Part shown: positions 19,363 to 59,715 of the stretch, in pieces
Layout of the letters: each line of letters begins with the position of its first letter
How positions within the stretch are numbered: the stretch's first letter is position 1
Source of the DNA: an uncultured virus (IMG/VR IMGVR_UViG_3300016471_000493)
Taxonomy: Duplodnaviria > Heunggongvirae > Uroviricota > Caudoviricetes
Length of the DNA stretch: 64,000 nt
Reading direction: 5' to 3' (one strand)
IMG/VR virus record: IMGVR_UViG_3300016471_000493
Position numbers and translations under genes: made by a program
The notes under the pieces: generated by a model
Told to the model about the DNA's origin: nothing
The model's input: the letters and a program-made list of their open reading frames with translations, nothing else
The model's database searches: none

Positions 19363-20860
19363 TTACTTGTTTATTTTTTGCATGATATCCTTCATTCTCA
19401 AGAACTGAGGATTTTCATAAGTTTTTGATTCGATTAAATTTTGTGAAGAACCTGAAGAGTGAGTTTTTTCTATTTTTTCCATAGACTCGGTCACAAAATT
19501 TGTTGAAGAATTTGTTAATTCTTTTTTAATTGAATTATAAAGATTTTTAGATTCTTTGATTGTTTCAACATCATCAAACCTTCTAAGAATGTTAATTTTT
19601 TCTTGTTTCGAAGTAGGATGTTCTGTGAACAATCTAGTGGCATAAGCCAAATTAGAATTGAAAACAGCGACTTCATTAAGTTTTTCTCTAAAAACATTTA
19701 AAGCTTTTTGATACTCAACATTCTTTTGTCTTAGAGATTGAACTTCTTCACTCACGGCCGAATTCGGAATTACTTTAGCTTTTGGTAAACCTTTTCTCAG
19801 ACCGTAATTTCTAGTTCCGTTACTTAGTGTTCTAGCGGCTTCTTTAGTTTCACCTTTTGAGAAAGCTCCGGCAATTCTTTTTTCCACAGCAGAAATGTCA
19901 TGTTTCTTACCTCCCTTATATTCAAATTTCTTGGGAGAAAGATTCATTCCAATACCTTTAGGTTTCATTTTACCAACACTTTCTTCTGTTTCAGTTTTTC
20001 TAGCTTTAGGGGCTGGATTTGGGGCTTCTCTACGGAAAGGACTGCGTTTCGTATCTTTACCAGTTTCAACTTTTTCTTTTTCTTTTGGTTTTGTAGTTGT
20101 AGATTCTTTGGTTTCGGCTTTTGAACCTAATGGCTTACCCGCCTTCCAATTTGAAAACATTATTGGTTTCATACCACTTTTTGATTCAGAGAGATCAGGA
20201 TTATCATCACCATACATGTCATCATCCTCATCCATAGAAATTTCATACACAACCTCATCCATTTCTTCATCCATTTCCTCATCCATTTCCCCATCCATTT
20301 CTTCTGAGAAAATATCATTCATGATTTGGTCCATTTGGGAATCGGACATTTTTTCGGTAATAGATTCGTTTGTTGAGATGATATATTCTACATCTTCTTC
20401 TTCGTCATCAAGGTGAATTTTATCACCTTCTTTTTTCACGATAATTCTATCAGATGGACCCATTTTTTTGAAAACGCTTAATACGTCTTCCATAGATGCA
20501 TCATCAGGGATTTCTACAACATCTTCATCATCCATATCGACATCCAATTCATCGGAATCTATATCCATTTCATCGTCAGAATCANNNNNNNNNNNNNNNN
20601 NNNNNNNNNNNNNNNNNNNNNNNNNNNNNNNNNNNNNNNNNNNNNNNNNNNNNNNNNNTTTCATCGTCAGAATCAACATCTAGTTTATCTTGTTCTTGTA
20701 GTCTTTTTCTAGTTTTATTTTTCAAAGACTCTTTTACTAATTCAGAGATTTCTTCCTTCATTGTTGAAGCAAGTATTCCTTTTGCGTTTTCAGTTACAAC
20801 ATCTTCTAGATTTTTCATCTGAAGAAGAGCTTCTTCTACTAATGACTTTTTGTCTGACAT
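19363..20860 (-). CDS. prohead core/scaffold protein (gp22-like), spanning the assembly gap
   Basis: Sits between protease and capsid; acidic and coiled-coil; the two ORF halves join in frame if the 17-nt overlap flanking the gap is merged. Confidence 0.8.
20585..20658. other. assembly gap (74 N)
   Basis: N run flanked on both sides by TTTCATCGTCAGAATCA. Confidence 0.99.
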
Positions 20861-20933
20861 AGAATTATTAAATTTTTACATATAAATATATCTATGTTAG
20901 AAAAAACATTCATTTTTTAAATTAAATTAAAAA

Positions 20934-21007
20934 AAATCCCACAAATCTTTAGTTTGTGGGATGAATTATGGTAGTTATTGAATTAGCAAACAAAGTTTGT
21001 TAGTTCA
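20934..21007 (+). mobile_element. IS200/IS605-type end hairpin(s), possible miniature element
   Basis: ATCCCACAAA-TCTTTAG-TTTGTGGGAT hairpin, then a second hairpin ending TAGTTCA; related to 45283, 61631 and 62817. Confidence 0.55.
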
Positions 21008-32198: not shown

Positions 32199-32210
32199 AT
32201 TTCTAAAATT

Positions 32211-32242
32211 AAAAGACCGACCTTTCAAGGGGTCGGTCTTTT
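32211..32242 (-). terminator. intrinsic terminator after dnaK
   Basis: AAAAGACCGACC-TTTCAAGG-GGTCGGTCTTTT hairpin. Confidence 0.85.
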
Positions 32243-32264
32243 ATAAATATACTGACATTAATTT

Positions 32265-37196: not shown

Positions 37197-37592
37197 GGGG
37201 CTAACAGGAATCGACTGGTTTCTACGGATCTGAAAGGGCATGACGGGGCTGAATTAACCTCGTAAAAACTGATTCAAAAAACTAAATGGCGATGTTTTCG
37301 CAAACATGGAGACTATCGGACTCTTGAAGACCGAAGTCGCGGTTGTAGCTTAATTGATACAATCACCAGGGGTTACGGACTGTACACCTTGCAACAGAAG
37401 TCCTAAAGGTGTGGTTTCTACCATAACAGGAATGGAGGATTTATTAAGTTTTTCCGTAATAAAACTTGATGTAGTTGTCGGAGACATTCATTTAAATGAA
37501 CCGTCTATTTGTTAGTTAAGAATAACTAAATAATCATGTAGACCTTTCGTGAAGTAATTCACAGGACGGTGGTTCGAATCCACCTAGCTCCA
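37197..37592 (+). ncRNA. ssrA: tmRNA
   Basis: 5' GGGGCTA pairs with 3' TAGCTCC+A including G3:U (Ala identity); T-arm GGTGG-TTCGAAT-CCACC; helix 2 GAAAGGGCATG/CATGTAGACCTTTC; tag frame 37288-37353; CCA not fully encoded. Confidence 0.93.
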
Positions 37593-37627
37593 CAAAAAAA
37601 ATTTCATATCCGATATGGAATTGTTTT

Positions 37628-45183: not shown

Positions 45184-45282
45184 AGTTTTTTTTCATTACA
45201 AATATTTTGATTTTTCGAAAAAAACTAATTTTTTTACAAAAAAATAAAAAAATATCAAAATGTTACAGGAAATACGATTACA

Positions 45283-45323
45283 TTCAACAAACTAAAGATT
45301 TGTGGGATTTCTTGTGGGTATTA
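45283..45323 (-). mobile_element. IS605-type end fragment
   Basis: 24 nt identical (inverted) to the 20934 hairpin; shares TTTCTTGTGGGTATTA with the 62817 element. Confidence 0.55.
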
Positions 45324-45324
45324 T

Positions 45325-45912
45325 TTAAAACTTGGATGTTCTCTGAAACATTTCCAAGATTCTGTTCCTCTGATTCTGGAATGATTCATCCAAATCTTCG
45401 TTTTCAGTAAATTCATCCTCAACAAACATCCAATTATTATCCTCTTCATCTTCCTGAGGACTTAATGTTGCACCAGCTTCTCTAGGAGTTAATTCATCAT
45501 TATCCATTGGTTCGTAATCTTGGTCTATTCCTATCAAATCTATGGTTTCAAAATCCGTATCCACTTCATCATTTATTTCATTGTCTCTGAACGCATACGC
45601 TTCCTCAAACTCAGTCTCTTCGTAAGTTTCTTGCATTCCACATTCCATACATTCCGATTCTTCAACCTCATCCAAAAATAAATCAGAATACATTTCCTCC
45701 GATTCATTGATTCCCACATTTGTATATTTTTTCACCTCACCACTATTATTAACCACAAACCCTTCTTTGTCGTTGGCAAAATCTTGTGTATACAAGGGTT
45801 GAGGTTTATTATCGGTTTGATGTGTAATTCTATAACCATCATAAATTTTTTTATGTTGGTCTAAAATGTTATTTTTCTCTTGTTGAGTAATTCCTACGAA
45901 AAATGCGTTCAT
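45325..45912 (-). CDS. acidic putative core protein
   Basis: EKNNILDQH N-terminus; CMECG; C-terminal RILEMF.R. Confidence 0.55.
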   Translation of the reverse strand: MNAFFVGITQQEKNNILDQHKKIYDGYRITHQTDNKPQPLYTQDFANDKEGFVVNNSGEVKKYTNVGINESEEMYSDLFLDEVEESECMECGMQETYEETEFEEAYAFRDNEINDEVDTDFETIDLIGIDQDYEPMDNDELTPREAGATLSPQEDEEDNNWMFVEDEFTENEDLDESFQNQRNRILEMFQRTSKF

Positions 45913-45932
45913 AATTTTTTTTATAATAAATA

Positions 45933-45964
45933 TTTGATTCTTAAAAAAAATATTTTATATTTTA
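45933..45964 (+). promoter_or_regulatory. promoter for candidate sRNA
   Basis: TTTG-N19-TATATTTTA, same spacing as the tmRNA promoter. Confidence 0.6.
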
Positions 45965-45966
45965 AA

Positions 45967-46048
45967 TGTCACACGGGTCAAATTAATTTCATAGTCTTGG
46001 TCGGCGATTGTTATTCAAATTTGGGGGTTACCGTGTGACTTTTTTTTT
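45967..46048 (+). ncRNA. candidate trans-acting antisense sRNA
   Basis: 9-bp closing stem GTCACACGG/CCGTGTGAC plus T9; loop 45987-46004 matches 57554-57571 at 17/18 nt. Confidence 0.65.
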
Positions 46049-46069
46049 AATATCATTGTATTTAGAATA

Positions 46070-46666
46070 ATGGCAAATACTATGGTTTTACAAGAAAATG
46101 TAATAGAAGATATAAATTCTATTTTTTCTAAATTTGAGAAAACAACTAAAGCCATTTACAATACCGCTAAAACATTAGGTGTTGAAAATACAAAGTTTTT
46201 ATTAACATATTCGGCAATGATCGGTGCATTGGCTAGGCCATTGAATGCGACTTTGAATATGGAGTTTCCATCTCTCACGGGTCCTGAAAGAACATTACTT
46301 ATAATTGGGATTTGTTCTATTTTGTATAATCAAAATGCTTCTGAGATAAGACAAATTACTAGATTGATCAGAGAAAGAAATTTGATAAAAGAGTTTAATT
46401 TTGCAAAACGTAAAATTGATAAATTAATTGATTTGTTAAGACTTTTTGTGACTAATTCAGTCAAGTCAGTCAAAATGGCAAATGAAATAATTTTTTTTAC
46501 CTTCCTATTACCAATATTAGATTATCTTCTGAAAATCGGTGATAATAACTTGACTAGTGAAGATTTCACAGAATTAGCAAAAAGAGTGGTAGCACTCAGT
46601 GTAGTTGCAATTAATCAATATACGATTAAGAAACTATTGCAAAAAGTAACCAAAGAAAAAAAATAA
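46070..46666 (+). CDS. hypothetical hydrophobic protein
   Basis: 198-aa ORF with hydrophobic helices. Confidence 0.6.
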   Translation: MANTMVLQENVIEDINSIFSKFEKTTKAIYNTAKTLGVENTKFLLTYSAMIGALARPLNATLNMEFPSLTGPERTLLIIGICSILYNQNASEIRQITRLIRERNLIKEFNFAKRKIDKLIDLLRLFVTNSVKSVKMANEIIFFTFLLPILDYLLKIGDNNLTSEDFTELAKRVVALSVVAINQYTIKKLLQKVTKEKK

Positions 46667-51062: not shown

Positions 51063-52775
51063 TTAATAAGTTAATATTGATTGATTTGTAAATCCTGGTG
51101 ATAATAAATATAGATTAGTTGTTCCACCACTCGTTGGTGTAAAAGTATAGCTGGATTGAGTACCTGGTATTGAACTCCTTAAATCCCCCGTTCCTGTTGT
51201 TAAACTTGTCCATTGTGAGTTTGTAAATAGTAATGTTCTTTTTGTCCAATTTAATCCATTTATTCTTCTCGCTATTGTATAAATATCATTTATTGTAATA
51301 AAATTATCACCACTTACCTCATATTTGTGATAATGATATGATTTGATTGGTATTCTTTGTAAAACAATATCATCAATTCCCACAAAATCAGCAGAGGATA
51401 GATTTGATGTTGTAGTTGGGATTACTACTTCAATATACCACTCATCTCCATTTACCATTGGTCGTGAAAATGAATATTCGCCTAAAACATTTGTTGTAGA
51501 TGTAGTTTGTTGAGACCAAGAAGTGAAAGTAGATGTTAAAATACCTAGTTCTGAGACTTGAAGTGAATAAGTTGATTGACCAGGTCTTCTCCATACTACA
51601 ATCAATCCATCACCACCACCATATTCTTGCATTCTAGCTCTGAATGTATATTGAGTTCCTGCGACTAAATTTATATTTCCATAAATTGGTCCACTCATTC
51701 CGTGCCCACCATAATAACTAACCACAAATGTTCCGCCAATAAACAAATCACTACCATCATCAGAATTTATTCCAAAAGAATATGTTCCGGTCACAGTAGG
51801 TATAAAAGTTCCTGTAACTTCAACTGAATAATAATTACCATTATTTGGTATAGTAGCACCTGCACTACTTAAAGTTGTGAATGTGGTAAAGTTTAAACAA
51901 GTTGTTGTTGGCAAAGTTCCAGACCAGTGTAATTGTGTATTAGAAAATGATGTATTGAATAATTTATCGAAATCAGTAGTTACTGTTGGAAATTGGGAAT
52001 ATTGTGAAGTATTCCCATTTCCAGCGTGTGTTGAAAAAACTTTCACATTCATCGTATTAGATAATCCTATTGTTTGTCCTCTTTTAAAAAGTTTAGTAAG
52101 GATATTTTGAACTGGAATATCGTTTTCTGTCCTTATAACCCCCGAATGGGTAAAAGGTGTATAAGGTGTGAAAATAACCGATGAGTTTGTTGTTGGACTC
52201 CAATTAACACCATTTCTACTAGGTGTCGTAACAATCAATGAGTTATTGTTGTTTGAAACACCTTGAAGTGATGCACCAGAAGAACAACCTGGATGTGAAT
52301 TTACATTTATCTGAATTAAATTGGTGGTTTCTGATAATACAATTTGGAAGTCTGTGAAAAGTGTAGAATTAGAATTACAACTATAATAACCTATGTGATA
52401 ACTAACAACAAATTTTCGGTTAGGAGATGAACCAATGGTTTGATATCTTACAAAATAGTTTGTAATTGGAAATAAATCCATAGCGTTAGCGTGAATTCCA
52501 TTACTTACTACACTATTAGGTGAACCACCTACAATATCACCACCTGTATTTGTGAACGATATCCATCCATTTGAACATATATTTGCTGTTGTGTAATTAG
52601 TTCCCCAATAGTTAAATGTAAAACCAATAGGTAAATTGGATATAGTTTGGTCATCCCCCAATGTTAGAGCAGTTCCGGTGGTTGATTCATATGAATAGGT
52701 TGTTGAAGATTGGGTATAAGTCATTTGCCCAAATACTGAAAGTGGTACTAGTAGTAATAGTATTAATTTTTTCAC
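51063..52775 (-). CDS. secreted protein with PA14 domain and dockerin-like C-terminus
   Basis: Signal peptide from GTG 52775; GTYSFGINSDDGSDLFI...YGGHG...QEYGGGD (PA14); EVSGDNFITIND. Confidence 0.75.
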   Translation of the reverse strand: MKKLILLLLVPLSVFGQMTYTQSSTTYSYESTTGTALTLGDDQTISNLPIGFTFNYWGTNYTTANICSNGWISFTNTGGDIVGGSPNSVVSNGIHANAMDLFPITNYFVRYQTIGSSPNRKFVVSYHIGYYSCNSNSTLFTDFQIVLSETTNLIQINVNSHPGCSSGASLQGVSNNNNSLIVTTPSRNGVNWSPTTNSSVIFTPYTPFTHSGVIRTENDIPVQNILTKLFKRGQTIGLSNTMNVKVFSTHAGNGNTSQYSQFPTVTTDFDKLFNTSFSNTQLHWSGTLPTTTCLNFTTFTTLSSAGATIPNNGNYYSVEVTGTFIPTVTGTYSFGINSDDGSDLFIGGTFVVSYYGGHGMSGPIYGNINLVAGTQYTFRARMQEYGGGDGLIVVWRRPGQSTYSLQVSELGILTSTFTSWSQQTTSTTNVLGEYSFSRPMVNGDEWYIEVVIPTTTSNLSSADFVGIDDIVLQRIPIKSYHYHKYEVSGDNFITINDIYTIARRINGLNWTKRTLLFTNSQWTSLTTGTGDLRSSIPGTQSSYTFTPTSGGTTNLYLLSPGFTNQSILTY

Positions 52776-53983
52776 AACAAAATTTTTGTTCCAGTTAAAA
52801 CTTGCCAATTTAAAAATGTTTGATTTAATTGATAAACTCCTGAAAAACTTATTGTCCATTTAAATTTATTAGTTACTTTCAAATCTGTATTTACCATTGG
52901 GATTATCAAAAAACCACTTTTATACCATTGACCAGAATAAAAAAAAATGTAAGGAGAATATACTCCTAAACCTAAAAAATTCAACCCTATTGATTTATTT
53001 CCTTTGAAGTTGGTAAAGCCGCCACCAATTAAAGACCAATTACGAAAATCATTTTTATCTATCTCACCCAAAGTAAAGGTAGTTCCTCCCATTAAAGTTA
53101 CTTTATTTATTTTTTGAGCATTGAGTAACGATGCAGTTAAAAACCAATTATCCTTAAAATTACTCATATATGATGTAGAAAATATGCCCATATACCCTTT
53201 AACCTTTAATGAACCATATCCTGATAAGTTAAGTATGTTTTGCCCCGTCTGGTAATTTATGTTTATACCTTTGATAAATGTTTGTTTTGTATTAACATGA
53301 GTCAAAGAAGTATTAAATCTAAAATTATCATTACCTTTCTTTGTAATATTTGAATCGTTTCGTATTATAACAATATCCCCGGTAGCGATTAAAGCACCAT
53401 TAGACGCTTTGGAAGAACTTTTACCGCCTTTACCACCACCCCCTCCACCTTCACCATTATTTTCACTTTCACCACCACTTGCAGTTTGTTGATTTTTATC
53501 ATCAACCGCCGTTATTTCACCACCACCTTCGGATGTAGAATTATTATTATTGCTTCCTCCTTCATTTCTTGGTGTAGGTGGAGGTGTGGGTATATTACCA
53601 ACAGAACTTCCAATAGAGCTAGCCATAGAGACTACTGAAGATATGTTTGCTACACCATTCGCTGTAACACTGCCTATAAAGTTTGTAATATTGTTTGATT
53701 CCTCAATACCCTCAGATGCACACGGGTTGACATTAGGTGGTAAAGCATCTCTAATGGATTGAACCCATTGGGTATACATCCCAGCATCTAATTCTGTATA
53801 TGTAAAAGATCTAAATTGCCCTGCATAAAACATTGTAACACTAGAACTCTGAGTTTCAAGTTGTACTGATTCAGTTCTTCCATTACAAGGGTTAACATAA
53901 AAATAGGTGAAACTTTGAGCGTGGGTTCTCAAAATTCCACCTATCAAAAAGATGAATAAAAATAAAATTTTTTTACCAACCAT
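52772..53983 (-). CDS. secreted protein with probable C-terminal outer-membrane beta-barrel
   Basis: Signal peptide, G/S/N linker, alternating amphipathic strands ending WQVLTGTKILL. Confidence 0.6.
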   Translation of the reverse strand: MVGKKILFLFIFLIGGILRTHAQSFTYFYVNPCNGRTESVQLETQSSSVTMFYAGQFRSFTYTELDAGMYTQWVQSIRDALPPNVNPCASEGIEESNNITNFIGSVTANGVANISSVVSMASSIGSSVGNIPTPPPTPRNEGGSNNNNSTSEGGGEITAVDDKNQQTASGGESENNGEGGGGGGKGGKSSSKASNGALIATGDIVIIRNDSNITKKGNDNFRFNTSLTHVNTKQTFIKGININYQTGQNILNLSGYGSLKVKGYMGIFSTSYMSNFKDNWFLTASLLNAQKINKVTLMGGTTFTLGEIDKNDFRNWSLIGGGFTNFKGNKSIGLNFLGLGVYSPYIFFYSGQWYKSGFLIIPMVNTDLKVTNKFKWTISFSGVYQLNQTFLNWQVLTGTKILL

Positions 53984-55064: not shown

Positions 55065-56966
55065 TTACTTTTTAATTATTTTATGAATCTTCTGTTTTTC
55101 ATTGGTCGTTAATCTTACAAAGTAGAAACCTGGTTTCAAATTACTAACATCAAATCGTCTTGTAACAATCTCATTTTGCGTAACAAATTCCTTATTTGTA
55201 AAGTGTAATTTACCAGCGTAATCATAGATTTCGTAATATAAATATCCCCAATTTGTTTGATAATAATCTATATTTAAATTTTCATCAACAGGATTTGGAT
55301 AAACTATGAAACCATTTACTAGTTCGTTGACTAAGTCTCTTGCTCTTCTTCCATTGATAACTGTCGCATCAACAGGTGATGGAATAATATTTAGATCTTC
55401 GGCTTTATCATTTCCTGCCGCTTTATTTATAATTTTAATTGGCGATTGTTCCCAATTTGAATTTAAAACATCAAATTTAAAATTAAACATTTGAGTTGAA
55501 TTTGTAATAATAGATGGAGATAATTTAGATTCATGACCTCCCCATAAAATTTCACCTAATTTTGTAGAAATAAATGAGTTCCAAGAACTTGCCTCAGGAC
55601 CAACATTAATTTCTGAAAATTTAAAAATATTTGGATCATATTTCAAACCTATTTGTGTCGCGCCAACTCTATTACCATGTGTAATTAAAGTTACTGTAAC
55701 ATTAACTGAATTATCCTCAGAAATAGTTAATTTAGGTATTCTAAATTGTACTGAGTCTTGAATATTCTGATAAATAGTTCCCTCATCCAAAACATAAGAA
55801 GTCCCTACACTTGGGTTATTTACTCTTTGAATTTGAAATGATAAATTATTCAATCCTGTATTGGTGACATCCCCCAAAACGTATCCATAGTATGTTATTC
55901 CATTAGTACCGTTTAGATTTTGGTCTATCAATGTAGTTCCTATAATTCCTGTTTGGAAAATATTGGGATTGGCGATGATGGTATTGTATTCATTTGTTGT
56001 GTAATATCTTACATTATACTCGTTTGCAATAACAGGTGACCAAGATGAACGTCCTGTGGCTAAACGATTGAATATAAGGTAGGCGTCAGATACTGATAAA
56101 TTGCCACTTCTATTTACATCGCCTTGTTGGAATTCATAGGACTGAGCAGTATCCGCATAAATACTCATGTCAGACAAACGGTAAGCATCAGTAATGTTTA
56201 TAGATGAATTGTCTGATAAAGTGTCCAAATTGGAAACTAATTTTACATTATAAAAAGAAGTATCATATGGGATTTTTATAAGAGCAATACCATTTGTATT
56301 GGTTGTGAAACGATTTCCTCTAAAATAAACCTGAGACGACTTTAGTTTGAAGTCGTAGGCAAATGGCATTTCAGGAGCTGGTGTACCATCAACATTCAAC
56401 ACTGTAATCGGAATACTAACAGTATCCATTTTGAAACCACCACCATAATTGAAAGTTCCCAAAGTGTTATCAAATCCACTCATTGTTGTTGCTATGTTGG
56501 AATAAGAAGGATTGCCTTGAACTCTCAATGAGTCAACTGAAGATGGATTGAATGTTGATGAATGCGGTAGTAAAATCTCAAAAACCGCTCCATCTGGAAA
56601 ATCAAATATTGCTTGGTTTCCTGTATAAATTGCAGTAGCATTAACCCAACCAGGTTGTGTATAGTACGAACCATATTTTGTGGAAATTGTACTTACACTC
56701 GGGCCCCATTTCACAATAGGAGTTTTGAATGATTGAGACGGATAAAAAAACCTTACTTGAAAACCAACATAGTTGGTTGTAGTTGGATTATGATAGTGTA
56801 AGTATACGACTGTCGTGTCATTGAGTATACTACCCAACGTGAACACAGTATCTATCAAAAAATAAGGTGACGATGAATTGGGAGAAACTAATACTTCGTT
56901 TCTCCCATTCTGTCCATATACATTTACAGAAAACAATAATAAAAATCCTAAAATTATTTTTTTCAT
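55065..56966 (-). CDS. secreted cohesin/dockerin-like protein with T9SS type-A sorting domain
   Basis: Signal peptide; GDVNRSGNLSVSDA; VGATQIGLKYDP; VYPNPV...L.PGFYFVRL...KIIKK. Confidence 0.8.
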   Translation of the reverse strand: MKKIILGFLLLFSVNVYGQNGRNEVLVSPNSSSPYFLIDTVFTLGSILNDTTVVYLHYHNPTTTNYVGFQVRFFYPSQSFKTPIVKWGPSVSTISTKYGSYYTQPGWVNATAIYTGNQAIFDFPDGAVFEILLPHSSTFNPSSVDSLRVQGNPSYSNIATTMSGFDNTLGTFNYGGGFKMDTVSIPITVLNVDGTPAPEMPFAYDFKLKSSQVYFRGNRFTTNTNGIALIKIPYDTSFYNVKLVSNLDTLSDNSSINITDAYRLSDMSIYADTAQSYEFQQGDVNRSGNLSVSDAYLIFNRLATGRSSWSPVIANEYNVRYYTTNEYNTIIANPNIFQTGIIGTTLIDQNLNGTNGITYYGYVLGDVTNTGLNNLSFQIQRVNNPSVGTSYVLDEGTIYQNIQDSVQFRIPKLTISEDNSVNVTVTLITHGNRVGATQIGLKYDPNIFKFSEINVGPEASSWNSFISTKLGEILWGGHESKLSPSIITNSTQMFNFKFDVLNSNWEQSPIKIINKAAGNDKAEDLNIIPSPVDATVINGRRARDLVNELVNGFIVYPNPVDENLNIDYYQTNWGYLYYEIYDYAGKLHFTNKEFVTQNEIVTRRFDVSNLKPGFYFVRLTTNEKQKIHKIIKK

Positions 56967-56973
56967 AATAGAA

Positions 56974-57324
56974 TCAGTTGACTTCGTTATTGGATGATAA
57001 AGAAACACCATCTTCTTCGTCCATTTTTTGAACTAACATTTTATCTCTATCTTCGTTCGAAAACCAAAAATCAATAACTTTATTCAAGTTACCAACAAAG
57101 GCGCCTAAGAGAATAAGAAGTAACTCTTTCCATGCTTCTTCGATCGTTGCTTTAAACATTACTGCCATTACAATACCAAAAACGATAAAGAAAAAGGTAA
57201 ATAAAATTAATAATGTAATTTTCCAACGATTTGATTGCATTTGTTGTAGCATAAAATTAAACCTTTGGTCGGGTTGTACATTTTGGAAATCCGTATTGTA
57301 CAAAAGTGATTTAAATAATCCCAT
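56974..57324 (-). CDS. two-TM membrane protein
   Basis: Two hydrophobic helices; KVIDFWF. Confidence 0.7.
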   Translation of the reverse strand: MGLFKSLLYNTDFQNVQPDQRFNFMLQQMQSNRWKITLLILFTFFFIVFGIVMAVMFKATIEEAWKELLLILLGAFVGNLNKVIDFWFSNEDRDKMLVQKMDEEDGVSLSSNNEVN

Positions 57325-57325
57325 G

Positions 57326-57559
57326 TTATTCTGAATTTTTTTTCGTAAAAATTTTATCAGCAGACGCTAGTCCGAGTGCACCAAAAGCCAAAGCGGCTAC
57401 GGACTGAATTAATGCAGGTGCTGGGGCCACATCAACAGTCGAGAATGAGTTATGGTACATTGTGACGCATAAAGAAATTGCACACATTATTCCAACAAAT
57501 CTTTTGCTAGAAAATGATCCTTTTTCGTCTTGGAAAATTTGAGTTAAGAATTTTTTCAT
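57326..57559 (-). CDS. small two-TM membrane protein (holin-like), first gene of the operon
   Basis: SSKRFVGIMCAISLCV...VAALAFGALGL; ATATTTATA box at 57577-85. Confidence 0.65.
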   Translation of the reverse strand: MKKFLTQIFQDEKGSFSSKRFVGIMCAISLCVTMYHNSFSTVDVAPAPALIQSVAALAFGALGLASADKIFTKKNSE

Positions 57560-57616
57560 AATCTTGGTCGGTTCTCTATAAATATATCCAACCATCCAAA
57601 ATTATCACAATTTACA

Positions 57617-58752: not shown

Positions 58753-59715
58753 TCAATCAGTATTGTATTCAGGTAGTGGTTGATGCTCGAACGTAAATTT
58801 TAAATACCCTTCATCAGGAATCACATTTCTATCTAAATATTTATCCATTTTTTCGGGTGGTAAATAATCTTGTAAATTGGAAAATAATTTTCTCACTATT
58901 ATATTTTCTATTTCTTTTTCATTCATTGTCACATATCTAAATTTTTCTTTAACTTTAGGGTCGTTGTAATTCACAGCAATTGGGCCATCGAATAACCCTA
59001 AAACGTTTATAATTACATTCACATCACCATCTTGATCAATTTCTATTTTTTTAATTTTAAATTTGATTTTGAAATTTGCATTCCAAGCGGCTTTCAAATT
59101 TGTTAATTTTTTGGGTAAAAGATTTTCGATTTCTTGTCCCAATTTATCTTTTCTCGATTTGATTATGTCTTCATTACTCATTTCACCATATGTGTTAATG
59201 TCTTTCATAACATCTCGGTCGACCATAATCATTTTTGACTCTCTGTCTCTAGCAGGTAAAGAGTGACTAATGTGTCTTGCTGTTGTGGTTGAGTATTTGT
59301 CTGAATTAACAAACCATATTCCATCTCTGAAAATGTAAATAGGGTAATGTCCATATGAATATACAACATAAATCAATTCTCCTTGATAGTTATATTTCCA
59401 TTCCCCCTTCAAATTCGAGGCGACAAAAGGTATTTTACTAGCGGTATACTTTTGAACACTTGAATTTGTGGTTTTTTTAATTTTTAGACTTGTTTTATCA
59501 ATAAAATCATTCCAAGAAATATTTTCATAATCTCCTTGTGGTCTGTAATTTTGTCGGTATAAGTAATATATTTTTTTCCAATCATCTTCTGTACTTGTTG
59601 CTTTTAATAGATTTTTTACAAAAGCTAACCCTTCTCTAGTCTTTTTACTCAATAAATTTTTTTTGTTAAAGTATTTGAAAAAAGCAATCTCTTTATCTGT
59701 AAGCGGTCTTGACAT
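58753..59715 (-). CDS. hypothetical protein, paralog B
   Basis: As paralog A; retains YSTTTARH. Confidence 0.7.
   Translation of the reverse strand: MSRPLTDKEIAFFKYFNKKNLLSKKTREGLAFVKNLLKATSTEDDWKKIYYLYRQNYRPQGDYENISWNDFIDKTSLKIKKTTNSSVQKYTASKIPFVASNLKGEWKYNYQGELIYVVYSYGHYPIYIFRDGIWFVNSDKYSTTTARHISHSLPARDRESKMIMVDRDVMKDINTYGEMSNEDIIKSRKDKLGQEIENLLPKKLTNLKAAWNANFKIKFKIKKIEIDQDGDVNVIINVLGLFDGPIAVNYNDPKVKEKFRYVTMNEKEIENIIVRKLFSNLQDYLPPEKMDKYLDRNVIPDEGYLKFTFEHQPLPEYNTD

Follow-up and report, generated by a model that had tools for sequence, protein, structure and literature searches.

A conserved hairpin element of a probable giant Bacteroidota phage is a candidate small RNA gene with complementarity to the start of another phage gene

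A short intergenic element in a viral genome fragment, consisting of promoter-like boxes, a hairpin and a T-run (Table 1), is very probably a real genetic unit maintained by selection, and it probably constitutes a gene for a small RNA read from the plus strand. The hairpin contains an 18-nt stretch, hereafter referred to as the seed, that is complementary to the leader and start codon of a gene encoding a 77 aa protein elsewhere in the same genome. We tentatively read the RNA as a trans-acting antisense repressor of this gene. The element represents a putative new family of phage sRNAs.

The window, by which we mean the whole 64,000-nt stretch of DNA analysed here (IMG/VR virus record IMGVR_UViG_3300016471_000493), is probably part of a giant phage with a Bacteroidota host. 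This assignment follows from the presence of a tmRNA and of a gene for a protein with a type IX secretion system (T9SS) sorting domain, from the nearest DNA relative among 50,697 phage records, a Flavobacterium phage that was the sole match to the window, and from the sizes of its relatives, which comprise contigs of 15-115 kb rated 6-38% complete and more distant, complete genomes of 308-373 kb. The window includes 74 N, from position 20585 onward, which represent a gap or sequence that was withheld, and two tandem pairs of paralogous genes (40201-40935/40983-41711 and 57807-58748/58753-59715; repeat families D1, D3, D5, D7 and D9). The element occupies a 157-nt gap between two divergent genes encoding proteins of 195 and 198 aa. 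Neither these two proteins nor the 77, 116 and 61 aa proteins produced a Pfam or PHROG match at E <= 0.001, with only sub-threshold matches at E <= 1, and a protein atlas contained nothing on the function of the neighbour proteins. A 33-nt terminator-like hairpin (CCCACAAA...TTTGTGGG) is present twice in the window, at 20931-20963 and 45281-45313, in opposite orientation and with 91% complementarity between the copies; the second copy is placed just past the 195 aa gene.

Table 1. Features of the element, its surroundings and its proposed target. Positions refer to the window unless a contig is named.
Feature	Position	Strand	Remarks
195-aa gene, left neighbour	45325..45912	-	divergent; adjoins the element in the window only
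-33-like TTTG	45933..45936	+	invariant in 9/9 aligned copies
-7 box TATATTTT	45956..45963	+	consensus TAnnTTTG; separated from TTTG by a 19-nt spacer
Predicted small RNA	45968..46048	+	72 nt plus U-tail, about 76-81 nt
Closing stem P1, 5' arm GTCACACGG	45968..45976	+	9 pairs, invariant in 7/7 sequences, so no covariation
Inner helix P2, 5' arm TCAAATT	45978..45984	+	7 pairs with AATTTGG at 46018-46024
Seed, 18 nt	45987..46004	+	antisense to target leader and start codon; invariant in all copies
Variable patch	46011..46019	+	holds all variation of the RNA among relatives (46011, 46014-46017, 46019)
Closing stem P1, 3' arm CCGTGTGAC	46031..46039	+	pairs with 45968-45976
T9 run	46040..46048	+	invariant; forms an intrinsic-terminator-like end with P1
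198-aa gene, right neighbour	46070..46666	+	starts 20-22 nt after the T-run in every copy
Proposed target gene, 77 aa	57326..57559	-	two hydrophobic stretches, from reading the translation, not from a predictor
Proposed target site	57554..57571	-	spans the leader (12 nt), start codon and second codon of the 77-aa gene
-7-like box TATATTTA of target	57579..57586	-	upstream of the target; kept in the window, G001, G002 and G004
402-aa gene, contig L001	1641..2849	+	has its own hairpin; ends directly left of the element
282-aa gene, contig L018	2095..2943		between the element and the 195-aa gene

A preliminary description of this element, based on the letters alone, had reported a promoter, a 9-bp stem extended by an inner helix, and a terminal T9. 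These features are all present in the sequence, with some of their positions shifted by one base. Five positions of the promoter spacer vary among the copies, whereas TTTG and the -7 box are kept, the box changing only at its fourth base (A to G, in one contig) and at its last (T/C). In silico, the element has a putative Bacteroidota-type promoter of its own, with a conserved -33/-7 pair and a variable spacer. The underlying TTTG-N18-20-TANNTTT pattern is not rare (28 found vs 19.4 expected). In promoters of Flavobacterium johnsoniae, position -5 is described as being occupied by the final base of the -7 box (PMC6847099), a rule that puts the predicted transcription start of the element at G45968, the first base of the stem. 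The box of the element lacks the G at -5 that is nearly invariant in F. johnsoniae, and in one contig position -9 is occupied by G, a base hardly ever found there in that organism (PMC6847099). The same promoter geometry precedes the phage-borne tmRNA (37197-37595; Rfam, 102 bits), as had been observed earlier, with TTTG at 37157-60, N19 and TATATTTA at 37180-87; application of the F. johnsoniae rule has transcription of the tmRNA begin 5 nt ahead of the mature end. The tag peptide that ARAGORN assigns to this tmRNA is an odd 28 residues long and unlike the usual degradation tag.

At the other end of the element, the 9-bp G+C-rich stem stands directly before T9, and the T-run adjoins the stem on the plus strand only. 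The resulting predicted intrinsic terminator is atypical, since its stem encloses a 54-nt interior. A loop of 54 nt is unusual in terminators, and among the six sites in the window that combine a hairpin with a T-run the element is the sole long-loop one, the other five having loops of 4-16 nt. A separate structure at 32205-32251(-), behind a 646 aa gene, consists of a TATATTTATA box followed at once by a hairpin (GACCGACC...GGTCGGTC) and a T-run; its hairpin has a GGTCGG motif in common with the seed, and it is probably just a terminator.

The fold of the element alone is modest (-20.3 kcal/mol, z = -2.3). The RNAalifold consensus for seven sequences consists of P1 (9 bp), P2 (7 bp) and a weak P3, and none of its 22 predicted pairs within the RNA shows a compensatory change; one pair of P2 shifts from U-A to U-G in 2/7 sequences, which is compatible but not compensatory. 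The G+C-rich 3' half of the seed, UUGGUCGGC, forms the apical loop of this consensus fold. With P1 closed, the predicted energy is -22.9 kcal/mol, as against -14.4 and -9.1 kcal/mol when one or the other arm is held open, and no rival pairing was found. By reading, the plus strand of the element has no ATG-started frame from the predicted +1, and the sole mini-frame on its minus strand is MKLI-stop. At the Rfam gathering score, the tmRNA alone was matched in the window, and in particular the C4 antisense RNA family was not.

Related IMG/VR contigs were first reached through the 198 and 195 aa proteins, and searches for further copies used a pattern that specified only the stem and left the interior free. 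The element was recovered in 10 IMG/VR contigs, and a metagenome search returned 13 stretches, of which five were new copies, four were already known and four were unrelated; eight stretches in 185,579 species genomes fit the pattern, none of them related to the element. Every true copy carries the identical seed, and in 15 contigs other than that of the window the promoter, body and T-run have been kept together as a single unit. Identity in the RNA part amounts to 95-99%, compared with 65-68% DNA identity for the flanking genes in diverged relatives. Contig L003 matches the RNA at 80/81 nt and the 198 aa gene at 96% in DNA, while contigs L006, L007 and L018 match the RNA at 79/81, 77/81 and 78/81 nt and the same gene at 67%, 65% and 66%; in the latter three, the 21 nt from the T-run to the ATG are 48-57% identical. 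Confinement of all variation to one short patch of the RNA (Table 1) indicates that mutation has had time to act and that the remaining RNA is held by selection. The complete relatives G016, G017 and G019 have no homologue of the element, which is thus a clade-specific insertion.

Such extreme conservation would also be expected of an element acting at the DNA level, as a protein-binding, recombination or replication site, in which the 18-mer would be a protein site shared with the promoter region of the target gene. The 9-bp inverted repeat and the occurrence of the 18-mer twice, in the same orientation, could be accommodated by such a site. The 18-mer, however, is not palindromic, there is just one element per contig, and the combination of kept boxes, a free spacer and a kept T-run with its polarity fits a transcription unit. 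We consider a DNA-level role very unlikely and retain the interpretation of the element as an RNA gene.

The genes to the left of the element bear on the strand from which such an RNA would be read. Three kinds of left context are found among the relatives: that of the window, that of L001 with its 402 aa gene, shared by L002 and L004, and that of L018, in which a 282 aa gene intervenes. The left side of the promoter is a hot spot of gene gain, with different genes inserted in different relatives. A minus-strand transcript of the element in L001 would be antisense to the 402 aa gene, making use of the minus strand implausible there, and a minus-strand role, be it as leader of the 195 aa gene or through the MKLI mini-frame, was ruled out by these left-flank rearrangements. 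Persistence of the block in 15 further contigs, with changing flanks and left neighbours, suggests an independent plus-strand unit, as the preliminary description had proposed. Two contigs from one lake metatranscriptome run, which contained 6% of the sampled words, cover 45506-45688 and 46086-46345; they fall on the flanking genes of a relative, show 10 differences each, and leave 45704-46077 uncovered. Only contigs were available from this run, and standard-library contigs cannot show a small RNA.

Unlike the left neighbour, the 198 aa gene follows the element at nearly constant distance whatever lies to the left. This arrangement would suit a cis-acting leader, in which the promoter at 45933-63 drives the 198 aa gene, the hairpin and T9 serve as an attenuator that fixes or switches the level of read-through, and the short RNA is a by-product. 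In addition, only one promoter-like box (46057-64) lies between the T-run and the ATG, and an mRNA started from it would be nearly leaderless; mRNAs of this kind are described as uncommon for F. johnsoniae, in which leaders longer than 10 nt make up 87% (PMC6847099). The predicted structure argues against an attenuator: the predicted +1 is already the first base of the terminator's 5' arm, and there is no competing fold and hence no switch. Neither a mutually exclusive fold nor a known aptamer was found, and an Rfam scan of 45850-46150 at E <= 10 returned two noise matches and no riboswitch, leader or c4-type family. Moreover, distant homologues of the 198 aa gene in G018 and G019 have an upstream region of ~55 nt with the same TATTTA box right before the ATG and no hairpin, which implies that the gene needs no such element. 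A cis leader thus appears distinctly unlikely next to a separate small RNA gene. In a read-through transcript, a weak 7-bp hairpin at 46053-46074 could enclose the start codon of the 198 aa gene.

The preliminary description had pointed to a 17/18 match, in the same orientation, between the seed and the proposed target site, and this match was confirmed. With as many as 3 mismatches allowed, the window contains no match beyond these two stretches; shuffled controls gave a mean of 0.13. Their single difference (G45994 vs A57561) yields a G:U pair, so that the RNA and the mRNA could form 17 Watson-Crick pairs and one G:U pair. When the 54-nt interior was dinucleotide-shuffled, 14/400 shuffles produced a 17/18 match between any interior 18-mer and either strand of the window, and an 18-bp helix with G:U allowed was common by chance (100/300 shuffles). 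Matches of 17/18 elsewhere were found for 3/101 ORF-start regions, all of them AT-rich (3-4 G+C of 18). The match alone is weakly to moderately significant, and the case for pairing therefore rests on its coincidence with a start codon and its retention among relatives.

In energetic terms, the predicted duplex contributes -27.3 kcal/mol, with opening costs of 5.9 kcal/mol for the RNA and 1.5 kcal/mol for the target in its primary transcript; in a polycistronic context, opening of the target site costs 7.9 kcal/mol. A duplex-energy scan of the window gave -29.1 kcal/mol for the target vs -30.5 kcal/mol for 59201-59236, which lies within another gene. Three candidate sites other than the target were set aside: that at 59199-59248(-) (-32.8 kcal/mol), which encloses the stronger stretch of the scan, is not conserved in G004 and was attributed to chance, that at 15722-61(+) is out of frame or internal, and that at 52135-78(+) is on the non-coding strand.

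The complementarity had been reported to cover a start codon. The corresponding ORF in the window (57326-57595) contains a further in-frame ATG upstream, but G004 has no upstream in-frame start, and on this basis ATG 57559 is taken as the true start of the 77 aa gene. Upstream of the site, the 7 nt between it and the -7-like box vary while the box is kept, and the target mRNA is predicted to start at 57574, which would leave 3 nt of mRNA ahead of the site. Boxes of the form TATTTA[GT]A lie within 30 nt before an ORF start in 14/37 cases, and the reversed motif, which is no clean control, does so in 19/40. The gene had also been taken for the first of an operon, a placement that is no more than tentative: minus-strand genes extend upstream of it to 59715 with small gaps, and the promoter-like box is the only feature favouring a start there.

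The description of the gene product as holin-like is likewise conjectural. The 77 aa protein could be placed in no Pfam or PHROG family, and a lysin was not found among its neighbours. Its 274 homologues, which include proteins of phages without the RNA, have no Pfam domain and no informative name, being called only 'hypothetical' or 'predicted membrane protein', and the one match in a cultured phage, Flavobacterium phage MaF61, is to a hypothetical protein. The annotated features of the neighbourhood are T9SS-sorting, cohesin and PA14 domains: a protein combining cohesin with a C-terminal T9SS sorting domain (55065-57011(-)) and a PA14-domain protein (51063-52859(-)) are both encoded downstream of the proposed target, and phage proteins may be sent via the host type IX secretion system.

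If the seed acts on this gene, loop and target should occur together in related phages, and the target 18-mer is indeed present in all six RNA-bearing contigs that reach the relevant place (the window, G001, G002, G004, G008 and G009). The remaining five RNA-bearing contigs are without the target gene and end before its expected place (positive control 3/3). In G004, the site is conserved at 18/18, as opposed to 34/45 for the adjoining intergenic sequence, 107/124 for the coding part and 62/84 for the upstream gene. Homologues of the target with at most 83% identity have unrelated leaders, and their phages are without the RNA. Seed and target are both unvaried in the six contigs holding both, and the co-occurrence of RNA and target leader may reflect shared ancestry only.

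The seed is no more invariant than the rest of the RNA outside the 9-nt patch, and pairing with the 77 aa target therefore cannot explain all of the constraint. This observation leads to an alternative in which the element encodes a real phage sRNA whose main partners are others, be they a protein or mRNAs of the host or of other phage genes, and in which the match to the 77 aa gene is a coincidence or a relic of how the seed arose. Invariance extends over 72/81 nt, including a G5 run and its flanks to which no role has been assigned, similar duplex energies occur elsewhere in the window, the match has a chance rate of 3.5%, and many phage sRNAs are described as acting on host genes in a 2025 review (PMC12197685). 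A relic or coincidence would, on the other hand, have to coincide precisely with a start codon located where an mRNA is predicted to begin, to be kept intact in G004 despite diverged surroundings, and to involve a leader whose matching form is confined to the RNA-bearing clade. We hold this alternative to be rather unlikely, and continue with the antisense reading, under which the seed is conserved, accessible and complementary to the initiation region of its target.

The seed probably began as a copy of the start of the 77 aa gene that is now read from the opposite strand. Both 18-mers have the same orientation, which means that the RNA reads the gene-start copy backwards, and homology ends sharply at either edge of the 18-mer. 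In a further clade (L096-L104), the leaders of the 77 aa homologues, ..GGACAAGACTATGAAA (14 nt before and 6 nt into the gene), agree over 13 nt with the seed's complement, an identity that includes the base at which the target of the window differs to give the G:U pair. The leader ..ACAAGACTATGAAA was found as one copy in each of 4/5 contigs of this clade and not in the fifth, with no RNA-like second copy.

The minus strand of the element reads ATG AAA TTA ATT TGA, as noted in the preliminary description, which had viewed a leftover duplicated gene start as a potential argument against an RNA. Duplication is the probable origin of the seed, but it does not refute the RNA, since the copy is invariant within a conserved hairpin. 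A functionless leftover, located in a hairpin by chance, would account for a minus strand that runs from leader copy through ATG and AAA to a stop after four codons, and the 13 nt shared with the L096-L104 leaders likewise point to copying. It would not account for an element so much better conserved than its flanks, for variation limited to a patch outside the copy, or for the sharp edges of the 18-mer, and we regard it as extremely improbable.

According to the antisense reading, host RNA polymerase would start at G45968, make a 72-nt hairpin and stop in T9. The loosely folded interior of this RNA would expose the 18-nt seed, whose G+C-rich half UUGGUCGG would occupy the apical loop, and the seed would pair with the leader (12 nt), start codon and second codon of the 77 aa mRNA, which is encoded 11.5 kb away. 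By covering the initiation region, such a duplex would deny access to the ribosome and might also expose the target mRNA to decay, holding back the 77 aa membrane protein and perhaps the closely spaced genes downstream of it. We infer transcription of the element, the two start sites, pairing in vivo, its effect and its timing from the sequence. A more specific proposal for a giant phage of Flavobacteria-like hosts, in which the RNA is an 'antiholin' whose copied membrane-gene start, read backwards from a host-type promoter, times or brakes a holin-like protein and the gene train that follows, seems doubtful.

The known base-pairing RNAs of phages come mostly from enterobacterial prophages, or are cis-antisense transcripts. 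One of them, c4, has 5' and 3' ends that pair, and is cut from a longer transcript, upstream in its target's own operon. The c4 antisense RNA of phages P1 and P7 is described as ~77 nt long, without overlap with its target, and as repressing a phage gene through loop pairing (PMC12197685, citing Citron and Schuster 1990). The element resembles c4 of P1/P7 (and the CI RNA of P4) in being phage-encoded and non-overlapping, with pairing through an exposed loop proposed here. It differs from c4 in its separate predicted promoter and terminator, in the 11.5 kb that lie between it and its target, in its single long seed and in the phylum of the host, and the C4 family gave no Rfam match at E <= 10 in 45850-46150.

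A parallel in mechanism is provided by GibS of Bacteroides thetaiotaomicron, a chromosomal sRNA of about 145 nt described as having a Bacteroidota-type promoter, an intrinsic terminator and a long conserved seed in its unstructured 5' end, which covers start codons and represses several metabolic targets in a phylum without Hfq or ProQ (PMC7366714). By comparison, the element is phage-borne, about 80 nt long, has its seed within a closed hairpin and a phage gene as proposed target, and shows no sequence relation to GibS. Small cis-antisense RNAs of phages, such as sar of P22 and PAK_P4as15, are thought to block translation of phage genes (PMC12197685). These RNAs lie opposite their targets and are fully complementary to them, whereas the element is encoded elsewhere and shares only 18 nt with its target. 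Neither sequence nor model assigns the element to the family of c4, GibS or these cis-antisense RNAs.

Type I toxin-antitoxin systems include pairs of limited complementarity, of which tisB/istR-1 is an example. The proposed pair resembles such systems in the small hydrophobic protein and in ~18-20 nt of pairing near the initiation region (PMC2887945), with repression being proposed here. The element and the 77 aa gene are not adjacent, lying 11.5 kb and more than ten genes apart, and, unlike type I pairs, the 77 aa protein has homologues in phages without the RNA. In the 2025 review on phage sRNAs, Bacteroidota and holins have 0 occurrences each (PMC12197685), and searches of the open-access literature yielded no sRNA from Bacteroidota phages and none directed at a holin.

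The element is a clean candidate for an sRNA in giant freshwater phages, obtained from comparison alone, with clear borders, one strong predicted target and a probable origin in a copied gene start. If the antiholin proposal were true, the RNA would be the first base-pairing regulator known from any Bacteroidota phage. Confirmation of the antisense reading would mean that phages of an Hfq-less phylum apply long-seed antisense control to their own genes, and would provide a simple, portable repressor-target pair for Flavobacteria-type hosts.
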